Shown here piece after piece: positions 20,245-22,972 of a stretch of DNA of 64,000 nucleotides. Both the position numbers and the translations under genes were made by a program. Origin of the DNA: Escherichia phage P1; sequence record AF234173.1; one strand, written 5' to 3'. Position 1 is the first letter of the stretch. The number at the start of each line of letters is the position of its first letter. The notes below the pieces were generated by a model. The model was not told where the DNA came from and searched no databases. It saw nothing but the letters and a program-made list of their open reading frames with translations.

Positions 20245-21090
20245 ATGCTGGCTAAAGTCACTTTCCTGAGCTGTATAACGATGAGCGATTTTACTTTTTC
20301 TGGCTATGAATTGGCCTGCTTTGTAACACACTCCGGTCTATCCCGTAGCGCCGGGCATATCCTGTCGCAATGTGCAAATCTCGCGGCAACAACCAGTGAA
20401 TACTTCATTCACAAGCCTCACCGCCTGATCGCGGCAGAAACTGGTTATAGCCAATCAACCGTCGTTCGTGCATTCCGTGAAGCTGTAAACAAAGGAATTC
20501 TGTCTGTAGAGATTGTTATCGGCGATCACCGTGAACGTCGCGCTAACCTGTACCGGTTTACACCATCCTTTTTGGCCTTCGCACAACAAGCCAAAAATGC
20601 GCTGATAGAAAGCAAATTAAAGATCTCTTCAGCGGCAACCAAGGTTAAAGCTGTTCTCGCTAAGACATTGGCTTTATTTAATTTTTTATCCACACCCCCA
20701 TGTCAAAATGATACCCCCTCCCCCTGTCAGGATGACGTGGCAATAAAGAATAAGAAGTCACAAGTTAAAAAAACAAAAAGATCAGTTTCCGGCGGTGCCG
20801 GAACAACCAGCCTCAAAAAATTGACTTCATGGATCGCTAAGGCAAAAGCAAAGGCTGACAATCTGCGGTTATCCAAAAAACGCACTCAAAAACATGAGTT
20901 CAAGCAGAAAGTAGAGGCGGCTGCGCGGAAATATGCTTACCTGAAGAACAAGCGTTCGCCTGATATTGGCGGGATATCAAACTTCGATAACCTACCGCAT
21001 TGCATGACGGTAAACGAAGCTCTTAATGCGGTTTTAGCCAAAAATAAAGATAACGAACAATGGGGTATACCGGCAGGATTCAGAGGGTAA
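20245..21090 (+). CDS. repL: lytic replicon initiator RepL
   Basis: 281 aa downstream of kilA under the Op53-like operator; Lys-rich C-terminal half. Confidence 0.75.
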   Translation: MLAKVTFLSCITMSDFTFSGYELACFVTHSGLSRSAGHILSQCANLAATTSEYFIHKPHRLIAAETGYSQSTVVRAFREAVNKGILSVEIVIGDHRERRANLYRFTPSFLAFAQQAKNALIESKLKISSAATKVKAVLAKTLALFNFLSTPPCQNDTPSPCQDDVAIKNKKSQVKKTKRSVSGGAGTTSLKKLTSWIAKAKAKADNLRLSKKRTQKHEFKQKVEAAARKYAYLKNKRSPDIGGISNFDNLPHCMTVNEALNAVLAKNKDNEQWGIPAGFRG

Positions 21091-21093
21091 TGA

Positions 21094-21110
21094 ATTGCTC
21101 TAATTATAAC
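21094..21110 (+). promoter_or_regulatory. degenerate C1-operator-like site
   Basis: ATTGCTCTAATTATAAC, about 12/17 match. Confidence 0.3.
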
Positions 21111-21258
21111 CATGCATACTTTCAACACCTCTAGTTTGCCATGAGGCAAACTCATAGGTGTCCTGGTAAGAGGACACTGTTGCCAAAACTGGACGCCCCA
21201 TTATTGCAATTAATAAACAACTAACGGACAATTCTACCTAACAATAAGTGGAGTTAAC

Positions 21259-21963
21259 ATGTTGAACCGAAGAACATTTAATGTATTCTGCGATGAATCC
21301 TGTCACCTACTAAATGATCATAATAAAGTCATGGTATTGGGTGCGCTTTGGTGTCCCGGCACTATCACAAAAAAAATTGCTAGAGACATCAAGGAATTAA
21401 AATTAAAACACAATCTAAAACCTGATTTCGAAATCAAGTGGACTAAAGTATCTGCGTCCAAAGTTGAATTTTACTTAGATGTCGTAGATTACTTCTTCAG
21501 CAACCCTGCATTGCGCTTTAGAGGTGTTGTTGTTCCTGATAAAGAGCAACTGGACCATGCTCGATTCCATCAAGATCATAATACTTTCTATTATAAGATG
21601 TTTTTTTATGTCTTAAAAAACATAATAGAAAGTAACAACACATACAATATCTACCTAGATATAAAAGATACTTTAGGTATTGAAAAAATTGAGAAATTAA
21701 GAGGGGTTCTTCACAATGATCGCTATGATTACAATCATGAGTCGATAAACAGAATTCAACATATACGATCTCATGAAGTGCAGCAATTGCAGCTAACGGA
21801 TCTTTTCATTGGCGCGTTAGGCTACGTTCATCGAGGAATGAATAGCAACGCGGGAAAAATCCAAGTCATAAACAGAATAAAATCACATACAAACAGGGAG
21901 TTACTAAAAAGTACTCTTCCAACAGAAAGTAAATTTAATATTTTCGTGTGGGAGGCTCGCTGA
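21259..21963 (+). CDS. DUF3800-like protein (234 aa)
   Basis: N-terminal FCDESCH motif typical of DUF3800; AT-rich; two palindromes in its promoter region. Confidence 0.55.
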   Translation: MLNRRTFNVFCDESCHLLNDHNKVMVLGALWCPGTITKKIARDIKELKLKHNLKPDFEIKWTKVSASKVEFYLDVVDYFFSNPALRFRGVVVPDKEQLDHARFHQDHNTFYYKMFFYVLKNIIESNNTYNIYLDIKDTLGIEKIEKLRGVLHNDRYDYNHESINRIQHIRSHEVQQLQLTDLFIGALGYVHRGMNSNAGKIQVINRIKSHTNRELLKSTLPTESKFNIFVWEAR

Positions 21964-22427
21964 TGCTTCAAATGCCAGATTTATTGTACTTCAATGGAAG
22001 TTGGCAAGAGTATATAGACGATGTATATGATGTTGTTAGAGAAGATATTTTAATATCTAATATAACGTTTAAGGGTCTCCCTGTTCGATTACGTTATTCA
22101 CCGGAATATAATGGGAAAGAATTCGGATTTTGGCATTTAGTATCAGAGGGAAAAATAGAAGAAGAACGTATACCCGATCTTGAACGGTGCAAGCGAATTC
22201 GCTGGATCGCGCACATGATAAGGAATTATAACCATTGCGATATATCATGTTGGTCTGAAAGACGAGGACCAACTGAAGAGTGGGTAATCTGGAATGAGTG
22301 TGAAAACTACGTTGTTGTGCTATCCGCACGTAGAGACTATTGGCTTCTCAAAACAGCCTATGTTGTAACCTATGACAGTAAAATCAGAACACTCAAACAA
22401 AGCAGAAAAAGAGCACTTGGGACATAA
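21963..22427 (+). CDS. hypothetical protein translationally coupled to the DUF3800-like gene
   Basis: ATG overlaps the upstream stop (TGATG) with GGGAGG 6 nt upstream; track lists 21948..22427. Confidence 0.5.
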   Translation: MLQMPDLLYFNGSWQEYIDDVYDVVREDILISNITFKGLPVRLRYSPEYNGKEFGFWHLVSEGKIEEERIPDLERCKRIRWIAHMIRNYNHCDISCWSERRGPTEEWVIWNECENYVVVLSARRDYWLLKTAYVVTYDSKIRTLKQSRKRALGT

Positions 22428-22432
22428 AAAGC

Positions 22433-22465
22433 TGAACCCGACACATATTGCTATGTATCGGGTTC
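22433..22465 (+). terminator. putative hairpin terminator after the two-gene operon
   Basis: CCCGACACATA...TATGTATCGGG stem-loop. Confidence 0.35.
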
Positions 22466-22592
22466 GATCGCTCTTTCTACACATGGTAGATGAGTAATGC
22501 AAATCTAACCGATCTACTTTAGCTTTTCAATAGCTAGCTATAACTTTCCGCACATATTCTTCTGATAATTCCGGGAGAGCGGTTGGGTTTTT

Positions 22593-22889
22593 TCATGCTT
22601 TTCTGCGCAGAGAAGCACACTTATTCAGCAATAATAAGTGCAATTCTTTGTTATCACTAAGTATTTCTACACACCAATATCGTAACGTGTTCACTTCAAG
22701 TGTAGCCAGCACCTTATGTCGAAAAGCCCCCTCCCCTACACATAACGATGGCTGACATTCTGCTAAGGCACATAACCATGTATTGGCATCATAGAGAATC
22801 CAATAATGCTCCTCGGAAATAGTTTTGCATCCAATTATTTCGAATCTTCGTTCTATCGTTTCAGGAGAGTATGAAAAATCAATTTCCAT
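22593..22889 (-). CDS. hypothetical protein (98 aa)
   Basis: ORF track; AT-rich. Confidence 0.4.
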   Translation of the reverse strand: MEIDFSYSPETIERRFEIIGCKTISEEHYWILYDANTWLCALAECQPSLCVGEGAFRHKVLATLEVNTLRYWCVEILSDNKELHLLLLNKCASLRRKA

Positions 22890-22972
22890 AATATGCTCAA
22901 AATTTCGCTATATTGACATGATTTAAGCACAAAAAAGCTCCCGAAGGAGCTTTAAAATACAAGGGATGACTC

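Follow-up and report, generated by a model that had tools for sequence, protein, structure and literature searches.

Relation to described systems

The DUF3800-I to -XI, drum and skipping-rope motifs are structured RNAs that lie beside a DUF3800 gene in either orientation and often carry a terminator of their own (PMC5737381). How DUF3800 proteins and structured RNAs are connected has been a puzzle since 2017. Here, a window of 64,000 nucleotides of Escherichia phage P1 (AF234173.1) was analyzed, in which the annotated yet uncharacterized gene pair rlfA-rlfB is accompanied by a predicted small-RNA (sRNA) gene. Judged from its homologues, the conserved unit is a swappable module of three parts: an RNase H-like protein (RlfA), a small partner protein (RlfB) and an RNA of ~70 nt. 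Like the Weinberg DUF3800 motifs, the rlfAB sRNA is structured, has its own terminator and adjoins a DUF3800 gene; unlike them, it has a second conserved protein partner, RlfB. Viral copies of the sRNA adjoin DUF3800-VII, DUF3800-VIII and drum RNAs, but the Rfam models match those neighbours and not the rlfAB sRNA. DUF3800-I, -VII, -VIII, -IX and drum are the motifs confirmed in Rfam, and the separation from other DUF3800 motifs rests on these.

Two groups of defence loci also place a DUF3800 domain beside a structured non-coding RNA, as the rlfAB locus does: retron type VII, in which DUF3800 is fused or linked to a reverse transcriptase, and loci with the TPR-DUF3800/Csx32 accessories of Cas12a2, Cas12a3 and Cas13. 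Partners of the reverse transcriptase, TPR or Cas kind are absent from the rlfAB module, and QxxD, a motif missing from retron-linked DUF3800 proteins (PMC7736814), is retained in the RlfA subfamily. The two proteins correspond to PDC-M04 of PADLOC, an unvalidated candidate system that is defined by two proteins only; the RNA falls outside its definition.

Like PrrC in prr (EcoprrI), cassettes of the rlfAB type can be nested in type I restriction-modification loci: in 32 of 80 species they have hsdS on one side and hsdR on the other, in the order hsdM/hsdS, cassette, hsdR and all on the same strand. PrrC is an anticodon nuclease, and the weak fold matches of RlfB likewise include tRNA-targeting toxins. 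A sequence or domain relation to PrrC is lacking, a dedicated RNA is present, and the P1 cassette is neither beside a type I system nor nested in a type I restriction-modification operon.

The ToxIN nuclease, as reportedly described by Blower et al., is held by its cognate RNA, and phages are said to escape it with a pseudo-ToxI. The likeness of rlfAB to ToxIN lies in the proposed logic only, a nuclease checked by a cognate RNA and phages that escape with the RNA alone. In type III toxin-antitoxin systems a tandem-repeat antitoxin RNA precedes an endoRNase toxin gene and is co-transcribed with it, whereas the rlfAB RNA is a single downstream unit, made from a promoter of its own and mostly in convergent orientation to the protein genes. 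In addition, rlfAB has two proteins, and no ToxN-like fold was found in them.

The rlfA-rlfB gene pair

The sequence of the window equals that of phage P1 (AF234172 / NC_005856; 100% identity), and therefore the gene pair is rlfA/rlfB, as the original prediction had suspected. The protein-coding genes of the module are:

21259-21963, plus strand: rlfA, 234 aa, DUF3800 family, RNase HII-like fold
21963-22427, plus strand: rlfB, 154-aa partner protein, translationally coupled to rlfA

The earlier description of an AT-rich, coupled pair directly after repL was borne out in each of its parts. The repL stop codon is at 21090 and rlfA starts 168 nt after it. The TGATG overlap is formed by the rlfA TGA (21961-21963) and the rlfB ATG (21963-21965), which have the A in common, and the ribosome-binding site GGGAGG (21950-21955) is located 7 nt 5' of the rlfB ATG. 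The GC content of 21200-22400 is 0.33-0.39, compared with 0.44-0.52 for repL and 0.48-0.53 for the tail genes. The same prediction had called the locus a two-gene operon; the coupled pair stands, but the unit is not complete without a third, non-coding gene just 3' of rlfB. A literature search on rlfA/rlfB, PDC-M04, DUF3800 and Op55 returned no functional study, no paper that mentions or experimentally tests PDC-M04, and no demonstrated activity for any protein of the DUF3800 family.

RlfA matches Pfam DUF3800 (PF12686) with 54.2 bits (cut-off 21; E 3.5e-14) over profile positions 1-148 of 149, and the FCDESCH motif from which a DUF3800 protein had been proposed occupies residues 10-16. The invariant residues of RlfA include D12, E13, D134, D137, Q178 and D181. 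Among 28 homologues (52-88% identity), D12-E13 and Q178-L-T-D181 are invariant, so that both the N-terminal DE and the C-terminal QxxD motif described for DUF3800 (PMC7736814) are present. RlfA was found to have an RNase H fold, and its top-ranking fold matches come from RNase HII and HIII rather than from transposases or integrases. Four invariant carboxylates map to beta1, the strand 127-133 and the helix 175-191. A sequence search of RlfA against PDB chains gave nothing significant. Judged by sequence and predicted fold, RlfA is a putative DUF3800 nuclease of the RNase HII kind in which the acidic residues of the active site are intact.

RlfB is a small protein rich in arginine and histidine, translated in tandem with RlfA, and its invariant residues are F56, H58, R69, R75 and W81. 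The original prediction recognized no domain in it, in agreement with the lack of a Pfam or NCBIfam match for RlfB; the Pfam scan of 28 RlfB relatives was negative as well. Against PDB chains the best profile match had an E-value of 1.3 and single sequences gave 0.13 or worse, and hhalign assigned a probability of 0.07 to a relation with E. coli RelE. Sequence and profile searches (Pfam, PDB, hhalign) thus gave no relation to RNase toxins of the RelE/ParE or colicin D type. By Foldseek, toxins of the RelE/ParE and colicin D type (BECR fold) were matched weakly, with a best E-value of 0.08; colicin D and CdiA-CT, both of them tRNA-targeting toxins, are among the weak matches. A PHROGs search returned families of unknown function and a 'replication protein' label; this label and that of 'oxidoreductase' are unsupported.

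A small-RNA gene downstream of rlfB

The third gene of the module lies on the opposite strand and comprises the following features:

22495 to ~22426, minus strand: predicted sRNA gene, ~65-70 nt, unannotated, identified by covariance model, covariation and fold
22471-22494, minus strand: 5' hairpin of the sRNA, followed by a linker
22434-22465, minus strand: terminator hairpin of the sRNA, whose UCAGCUUUUU tail reaches the rlfB stop codon
22502-22530, minus strand: sigma-70 promoter of the sRNA found by promoter scan, -35 TTGAAA (22530-22525) and -10 TAGATT (22507-22502)

The promoter is near-consensus and the predicted transcription start is at ~22495. The covariance model R1 gave a single match in the P1 window (73.4 bits, E 2.7e-15), and the fold of the P1 sRNA has a z-score of -6.8. 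In the alignment, 96.3% of the cells can pair, compared with 41-51% when the partners are slid, and compensatory changes were observed in 17 of the 22 pairs; the score of the real alignment was reached by none of 500 shuffles. The same structure was predicted independently by RNAalifold. Because 99 G-U but only 13 A-C cells were counted, the transcribed strand is the minus strand. The promoter boxes stand at a constant distance in 79 loci; of these, 42 reach 9/12 or more, whereas shuffles would give 3.8 and the opposite strand has 1 of 80. Three viral contigs carry the sRNA in flipped orientation, with a promoter of its own retained, TTGACA-17-TATACT. Together, these data establish the existence, strand, structure and promoter of an sRNA gene, with the transcript itself predicted. 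The function of the plus strand as an element of the rlfB 3' UTR was rejected on the basis of the G-U/A-C counts, the minus-strand promoter and the flipped copies. A small ORF within the RNA, suggested by an SD-like GAAGGAG followed by ATG in some copies, was also rejected, as the ATG is not conserved.

The covariance model found 87 matches, one per locus. The sRNA is present in all 78 genome loci whose sequence continues beyond the B gene, from many phyla, and a search of the P1-like loci without rlfAB found none; its linkage to the two proteins is obligatory. Rfam 15 contains no family matching the P1 element at E-values up to 10, nor one matching a typical copy or any of 20 other loci at the gathering score. 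Altogether the Rfam scans covered the P1 region and 51 related loci, and a family for the sRNA was never found. The gene is annotated in no P1 or RefSeq record examined. It is the component missed by the original prediction and is new to P1 annotation: a predicted sRNA gene in one of the best-studied phages, conserved in the majority of bacterial phyla and tied to two uncharacterized proteins.

The 5' hairpin and the linker, both outside the terminator, are the most conserved parts of the sRNA. From Enterobacteria to Bacteroidota and Patescibacteria the single-stranded parts of the RNA hardly vary, and it has no variable segment. Antisense control of translation was rejected, since the 5' part of the sRNA pairs with the start regions of rlfA and rlfB no better than do shuffled sequences (mean z of duplex energies over ~70 loci -0.14 for rlfA and -0.02 for rlfB). 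As the sequence is near-invariant across phyla and there is no pairing signal at the translation starts, we infer that the RNA probably acts via protein and not by antisense pairing. An alternative is a minimal RNA-guided nuclease: RlfA, which is PIWI/RNase H-like, would be directed by the sRNA, with the aid of RlfB, to a nucleic acid of complementary sequence. The obligatory RNA partner and the recurrence of DUF3800 proteins beside systems using crRNA or retron RNA are in keeping with this. However, with nearly invariant single-stranded parts and no variable segment in the RNA, any guide target would have to be universal, and MID- or PAZ-like domains are absent; we consider such a guide function unlikely.

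The cassette as exchangeable cargo of P1

The conserved genes lie within a larger P1 block that also includes pmgF, and its left boundary falls in an operator for the C1 repressor:

21105-22930: variable cargo cassette between repL and the bplB terminator
21094-21110, plus strand: C1 operator Orlf/Op55, annotated in AF234172, at the 3' end of repL
22593-22889, minus strand: pmgF, 98 aa, GenBank annotation, member of a PHROG of unknown function

The block consists of the leader, rlfA, rlfB, the sRNA gene and pmgF. By blastn, homology to RCS47, phi456, Ro157c2YLVW, MH422554, 673R5 and SJ46 ends at 21104 and restarts at 22931. The slot corresponds to variable region 5 in PMC9603915, and in other P1-like phages it is occupied by IS cargo or by a gene annotated MokW, which we read as hok/mok-like. 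The gene pmgF is absent beside the rlfAB homologues elsewhere and thus belongs to the P1 cargo but not to the conserved module.

The degenerate C1-operator-like site noticed earlier is present, as Orlf/Op55 of the P1 GenBank record. Its sequence, ATTGCTCTAATTATAAC, agrees with the consensus at 12 of 17 positions, the left 11 exactly, and so has more than three mismatches. Only these left 11 nt (21094-21104) are common to P1-like phages with other cargo, while the right half varies with the cargo, and both blastn and the junction sequences place the breakpoint between backbone and cargo at 21104, within Op55. On this sequence evidence, the C1 half-operator belongs to the repL backbone.

Among 517 E. 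coli genomes with a P1-type repL, 121 carry rlfAB. In a CRISPRi knockdown study the efficiencies of plating (EOP) of P1 were 1.3 and 0.88 (PMC10695390). Because of this distribution and these EOP values, rlfAB is exchangeable cargo outside the lytic replicon, and it appears not to be needed for lytic growth: the genes do not travel with repL as parts of the P1 lytic replicon (kilA-repL-oriL) would, and the EOP stays at ~1. It could still be argued, following the original idea of a 'replication-linked function', that rlfAB is an accessory of lytic replication, with RlfA acting as an RNase H on RNA primers or R-loops at oriL, together with kilA-repL under C1. The position directly after repL/oriL and behind Op55 would fit, as would the RNase HII-like fold of RlfA, and a P1vir RNA-seq preprint reports that rlfA/rlfB behave as early lytic genes and groups them with the early replication genes. 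Against this stand the presence of rlfAB in a minority of the repL genomes, the unreduced plating after knockdown and the backbone origin of the operator half-site. The module also occurs in chromosomal type I operons, ICEs and lambdoid prophages without a P1 replicon, and a dedicated sRNA is left unexplained. A replication accessory is thus quite improbable.

Homologues and their genomic contexts

The locus was compared with hundreds of other genomes. With PADLOC-DB v2.0.0, RlfA was identified as PDC-M04A (E 1e-95) and RlfB as PDC-M04B (E 1.3e-51), both over the full length, and the two genes are adjacent, in A-B order and overlapping at start and stop, as defined for PDC-M04. Genes for type I restriction-modification lie within 3 kb of the module in 35 of 80 species. 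Further copies adjoin a reverse transcriptase and a prokaryotic Argonaute, and others prophage or ICE integrases; one context is a lambdoid moron. The suggestion of a defence or exclusion function agrees with both the PADLOC matches and these contexts, and defence remains a candidate function.

The module bounds are sharp and reproducible, from 2 nt 5' of the rlfA ATG to the 5' end of the RNA. Such bounds, together with the many unrelated contexts, could reflect a selfish mobile cassette in which RlfA, by its RNase H fold, works as a homing enzyme or DDE-like transposase and the element end is marked or served by the RNA. There is precedent for this: omega-RNA serves TnpB elements, and the IS605-orfB RNA motifs of Weinberg reportedly proved later to be element RNAs. 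However, the RlfA fold is closest to RNase HII/HIII, genomes carry a median of one copy, and the copies are nested in defence loci and not scattered, which makes a mobile element very improbable.

Orphan RNA copies in viruses

In 83 of 109 informative viral loci, the full-length RNA was found without RlfA or RlfB. The viral loci without RlfB number 94 when 11 uninformative ones are included, and in 41 of these there are tRNA genes within 1 kb; all 95 tRNAs near orphan RNAs are co-oriented with the RNA. Other orphan RNAs adjoin DUF3800-VIII, DUF3800-VII, drum or abiF RNAs, and the nearest ORFs do not encode DUF3800 proteins. Tandem copies of the RNA are confined to the orphan phage arrays. The orphan phage RNAs may have a role of their own that has nothing to do with RlfAB.

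That rlfAB is an ordinary two-protein toxin-antitoxin or defence pair followed by a bidirectional terminator alone is scarcely credible, for although the hairpin 22434-22465 is scored as a terminator and in P1 has convergent genes on either side, the conservation peak (5' hairpin and linker) is outside it, the promoter is conserved at a fixed distance, flipped copies bring their own promoter, and phage tRNA arrays contain orphan and tandem copies.

Possible function of the module

The reading that we prefer, at roughly even odds, is that the very widespread three-part module, of which the P1 cargo holds a complete copy, acts in abortive infection or addiction through a nuclease or toxin under the control of the RNA. 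An abundant sRNA would bind RlfB and/or RlfA and keep the nuclease silent. A phage that shuts off host transcription or degrades RNA would cause the sRNA level to fall and the nuclease to be released, and the loss of the P1 plasmid might have the same consequence. Phages could respond with decoys, copies of the RNA without the two proteins. To P1, the module would be of use in competition with other phages or in plasmid maintenance.

The upstream C1 operator and the early lytic expression in P1vir count against the defence reading. They imply that RlfA/RlfB may be off in lysogens, which fits poorly with a defence that protects the lysogen.

More tentatively, the module could be a ubiquitous ribonucleoprotein immune or addiction system in which the RNA restrains a nuclease and its toxin-like partner, often as a guard in type I operons, and which phages counter with decoys. 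The tRNA-rich jumbo-type and SPbeta-like phages would then be among those using RNA decoys, and the phage arrays of tRNA and non-coding RNA would be anti-defence 'decoy RNA' islands.

If the RNA is indeed a nuclease off-switch, the module would be a new and very widespread defence of the RNA-antitoxin type, often within type I operons, and would provide a first function for the DUF3800 family and for the RNA motifs of the DUF3800/drum type. The orphan RNAs of phage arrays would be a new class of anti-defence decoys, with a bearing on why large phages carry such arrays. As a copy is present in P1 and E. coli, the question of DUF3800 and RNA is directly testable by standard genetics. The RNA component is overlooked by the PADLOC definition of PDC-M04 and by annotation pipelines.

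The region upstream of rlfA

The leader between Op55 and rlfA contains three further features:

21133-21152, plus strand: palindrome 1, AGTTTGCC-ATGA-GGCAAACT, 8-bp arms and 4-nt loop
21158-21177, plus strand: palindrome 2, GTGTCCT-GGTAAG-AGGACAC, 7-bp arms and 6-nt loop
21204-21232, plus strand: PrlfA, predicted sigma-70 promoter, TTGCAA-17-GACAAT, GenBank annotation, weak match

The two perfect palindromes predicted originally are real, and palindrome 1 is longer than first stated. The 'dedicated regulation' deduced from the upstream features is not supported, because homologous cassettes elsewhere begin 2 nt 5' of the rlfA ATG; moreover, the half-operator is part of the backbone. Op55 lies ~110 nt 5' of the predicted PrlfA, and a promoter scan found no promoter over it; PrlfA itself was not recovered by a scan requiring 9 of 12 matches. 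Both palindromes are 5' of the predicted promoter and are confined to the P1 lineage, and they were rejected as conserved regulatory sites. About 1% of the dinucleotide shuffles of the 154-nt leader yield two palindromes of this size. In P7 and JL22, one arm of palindrome 1 is mutated without compensation, and in palindrome 2 of P7 one pair is compensated, one is a wobble and one is broken.

Identity and annotation of the rlfAB locus

Megablast matched positions 20900-22950 to phage P1 (AF234172 / NC_005856) with 100% identity and to phage P7 with 97%. Subtracting 30481 from a coordinate of the P1 record gives the window coordinate, and the features annotated there identify the gene pair as P1 rlfA/rlfB, as the original prediction had suspected.

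Features of the rlfAB region (window positions; all except the last are annotated in the P1 record)
21094-21110: C1 operator Orlf/Op55
21204-21232: promoter PrlfA, predicted
21259-21963: rlfA
21963-22427: rlfB
22593-22889: pmgF, convergent, the next gene after rlfB
~22495 to ~22426, minus strand: predicted small RNA (sRNA) transcript, terminator hairpin at 22465-22434

All the statements of the original prediction about the sequence were correct. The two genes overlap at TGATG, with GGGAGG 7 nt 5' of the rlfB ATG, and they lie in an AT-rich block in which the GC content falls to 0.33-0.39, compared with 0.44-0.53 in the flanks. The FCDESCH motif forms residues 10-16 of RlfA, for which the HMM check gave Pfam DUF3800 (E 3.5e-14), while RlfB, described as lacking a recognisable domain, had zero Pfam or NCBIfam matches. 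Both palindromes lie where they had been placed, the first with 8-bp arms (21133-21152); among dinucleotide shuffles of the 154-nt leader, about 1% hold two palindromes of this kind. The C1-operator-like site is the annotated Op55, which matches 12 of the 17 consensus positions, the left 11 exactly. A second AT-rich block lies upstream (16000-17600, GC 0.30-0.37), where the P1 record annotates simABC (superimmunity), another published variable region.

rlfAB is cargo of P1-like phage-plasmids

The rlfAB pair is cargo and not part of the replicon. P1-like phages without rlfAB are homologous to P1 up to 21104 and again from 22931. The left breakpoint falls within Op55: ATTGCTCTAAT after repL is common to all rlfAB-less P1-like phages compared, and the left 11 nt of the operator are universal in the compared P1-like phages, with the following six bases varying with the cargo. 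The backbone/cargo recombination breakpoint of P1-like phage-plasmids is thus inside a C1 operator (21094-21110). Between repL and the bplB terminator, RCS47 carries an ISEc46 tnpB and an unknown 198-aa ORF (L002 6349-8453), MH422554 a gene annotated MokW (L018 5169-5324), which we read from this annotation as hok/mok-like, and 673R5 and SJ46 other small ORFs; in phi456 the slot is nearly empty. Among 5426 complete E. coli genomes, 517 had a P1-type repL and 121 had rlfAB; E. coli also has copies in which rlfA or rlfB is truncated (P0023, P0024, P0041, P0109). In published comparisons, rlfA-rlfB-pmgF is one of eight low-GC regions that vary between P1-like phage-plasmids (PMC9603915, PMC6906374). 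The leader with the two palindromes is confined to the P1 lineage, the palindromes being partly eroded in P7 and JL22, and the homologous cassette of an Enterobacter prophage starts 2 nt 5' of the rlfA ATG.

A conserved small RNA gene follows rlfB

DNA homology between P1 and the Enterobacter cassette extends to 22495, 68 nt beyond the rlfB stop codon, and in more distant loci this tail is 83-85% conserved compared with about 70% for the genes. We collected the sequence 3' of the RlfB homologue (B gene) from 80 species-level genomes of many phyla, among them Enterobacterales, Methylococcales, Sphingomonadales, Desulfobacterota, Nitrospirota, Chloroflexota, Planctomycetota, Verrucomicrobiota, Bacteroidota, and Patescibacteria. 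The same element was found throughout, on the strand opposite rlfB: 5'-(G/A)CUCAUCUACCAUGUGUAGAAGGAGUAACG, a GC-rich hairpin, and UCAGCUUUUU. Its two-helix structure, recovered independently by RNAalifold, was paired in 96.3% of 900 alignment cells, against 41-51% when the 3' partners were slid by 1-3 columns. Compensatory changes were seen in 17 of 22 pairs, and both sides had changed in 105 cells compared with 23 in shuffles; none of 500 shuffles reached the observed values. The alignment held 99 G-U cells and only 13 A-C cells, which places the RNA on the strand opposite to rlfB. In copies from Marinobacter, Vreelandella, Pseudidiomarina, and Cellvibrio (L070, L089, L090, L092, L093, L103), about 14 extra nt are inserted into the apical loop of the 5' hairpin.

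Aligned at the start of the RNA, the upstream sequences contained TTGA(c/t)T at -36 to -31 and TATAxT at -13 to -8, with a purine at -1 in 74 of 79 loci. A promoter score of at least 9 of 12 was reached in 42 of 79 loci, where shuffles predicted 3.8 and the opposite strand gave 1 of 80. The P1 copy has TTGAAA-17-TAGATT (22530-22502) as its promoter, which a generic promoter scan also found. Three viral contigs have the RNA on the B-gene strand, about 100 nt downstream and behind its own TTGACA-17-TATACT promoter, and we therefore conclude that it is an independent gene.

We built a covariance model on 45 sequences; it recovered 87 copies, one per locus, including all 78 genome loci that reach past the B gene. 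Its single match in the 64-kb window was at 22425-22495 on the minus strand (73.4 bits), and P1-like loci without rlfAB gave zero matches. The P1 record has no RNA feature at this site, nor does RefSeq annotate one in the E. coli matches listed. Eleven unrelated RNA motifs of unknown function have been described beside DUF3800 genes (Weinberg et al., PMC5737381); the sRNA fits this theme, but no family of Rfam 15 matches it. In a further 53 E. coli genomes the match, at 80-90% identity on the chromosome (H124-H135), covered just the RNA, the first 70 nt of the query, and not its promoter; no ncRNA is annotated at those matches listed.

RlfA and RlfB

The PADLOC check proposed with the original prediction returned full-length matches of RlfA to PDC-M04A (E 1e-95) and of RlfB to PDC-M04B (E 1.3e-51). 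PADLOC lists PDC-M04 as a 'phage defence candidate', and we found no paper naming or testing it. RlfA has more than 5000 relatives and retains 52-66% identity between distant phyla. D12, E13, S14, C15, H16, D134, D137, Q178, and D181 are invariant, with D12-E13 and Q178-x-x-D181 matching the published DE and QxxD motifs of DUF3800 (PMC7736814). The literature contained no DUF3800 member with demonstrated activity.

The RlfB family (about 160 aa, invariant F56, H58, R69, R75, and W81) evolves fast, forming 1777 clusters at 50% identity. A Foldseek structure search found nothing significant and a profile comparison with RelE was negative. 'RNase-toxin-like' is a weak lead and not a result. Relatives are named 'oxidoreductase' (NCBI) or 'replication protein' (PHROGs, RefSeq); domain and structure searches support neither name. 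In two Methylomonas loci (L008 10699-10872, L010 5112-5591) RlfA and the sRNA are intact but the RlfB gene is split, encoding 57 aa, and L010 has an additional called ORF of 100 aa.

Genomic context and orphan RNA copies

Of the 80 genome loci, 35 had type I restriction-modification genes within 3 kb, and in 32 of these the order was hsdM/hsdS, cassette, hsdR on one strand, reminiscent of prrC within the prr type I locus. In individual loci the cassette adjoins an integrase in an Enterobacter prophage and in an E. coli ICE at guaA, forms a moron of reverse orientation in a lambdoid prophage of Serratia, and in a Bacteroidota island has hsdMS and a reverse transcriptase on one side, hsdR and a prokaryotic Argonaute on the other. 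The island (L015 5183-18062) reads hsdMS, reverse transcriptase, DUF3800, B gene, sRNA, hsdR, unknown, PIWI-domain Argonaute, helicase. Such contexts classically mark defence or addiction cargo. Several genome loci (L036 3859-4250, L052, L063, L065) have tRNA or tmRNA genes, typical integration sites of mobile elements, a few kb from the module.

Scanning IMG/VR for the RNA itself, by its 5'-hairpin pattern, gave at least 120 loci. Among the 120 matches listed, 26 had adjacent RlfB and RlfA, 83 had room for both yet lacked RlfB, and 11 were uninformative; no RlfA-like gene occurred anywhere in the 94 RlfB-less loci. A tRNA gene lay within 1 kb in 41 of these 94, all 95 such tRNAs sharing the strand of the RNA, and near none of the 26 copies with rlfAB. 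The full-length model matched in 30 of 30 orphan loci tested, some in tandem. Rfam placed a DUF3800-VIII RNA directly beside the orphan in 6 of 31 loci, a DUF3800-VII, drum, or abiF RNA in three others, and, elsewhere in orphan loci, ROOL RNA and large arrays of tRNA genes, one array also containing a tmRNA gene. The closest ORFs in five orphan loci were YonK, DUF6847, and unknowns, with no DUF3800 protein. Two SPbeta-like contigs (L168 717-840; L174 3764-3888) carry two tandem sRNAs followed by a DUF3800-VIII RNA, with no DUF3800 gene nearby. In L162, L183, L178, and L228 the orphan lies co-oriented within arrays of 20-30 phage tRNA genes, that of L162 also including a tmRNA gene; ROOL RNA occurs in L170, L173, and L177.

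Proposed function

Three genes make up the module, encoding an RNase HII-like protein, its partner protein, and an sRNA; it is cargo in P1 and embedded in defence loci elsewhere, and many phages carry its RNA alone. The protein genes (P1 rlfA, rlfB; PADLOC PDC-M04) and a general DUF3800-RNA association (2017) are already known. Judged by the literature and Rfam 15, the specific sRNA partner, which is near-universal and lacks annotation even in phage P1, appears to be new, as do the three-part definition of the module and the predominance, among the matches listed, of orphan copies in phage tRNA/non-coding-RNA arrays.

The loop, bulges, and linker of the sRNA are near-invariant between phyla, a variable guide-like segment is absent, and pairing with the start regions of rlfA or rlfB gave no signal; a protein-binding RNA is therefore favoured. 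We give about an even chance to a model in which the constitutive sRNA would bind RlfB and/or RlfA and hold the predicted nuclease inactive. The RNA would fall when a phage induces shut-off or the P1 plasmid is lost, and the freed nuclease would cause abortive infection or post-segregational killing; phages may counter by expressing the sRNA themselves. A phage counter-RNA would have precedents in pseudo-ToxI and in phage tRNAs by which anticodon nucleases or PARIS are neutralised. Given Op55 and the early lytic expression, RlfA and RlfB may be silent in lysogens, which weighs against the model, as does the weak toxin assignment of RlfB.

Retron reverse transcriptases, Cas12a2, Cas12a3, and Cas13 recur as DUF3800 neighbours; that the module is a minimal RNA-guided nuclease is nevertheless unlikely for an RNA of near-invariant sequence. 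Still less probable is a helper of lytic replication. The P1 record describes rlfA and rlfB solely as 'possibly associated with lytic replication'; knocking down rlfA or rlfB by CRISPRi left P1 plating unaffected, with EOPs of 1.3 and 0.88 (PMC10695390). A selfish mobile cassette, for which the variety of its contexts might speak, is slightly more doubtful again, given the nesting in type I loci. Finally, a plain two-protein pair followed by a terminator is very improbable, and the same-strand viral copies about 100 nt past the B gene, with their own promoter, indicate that the RNA is neither a terminator nor a 3' UTR.
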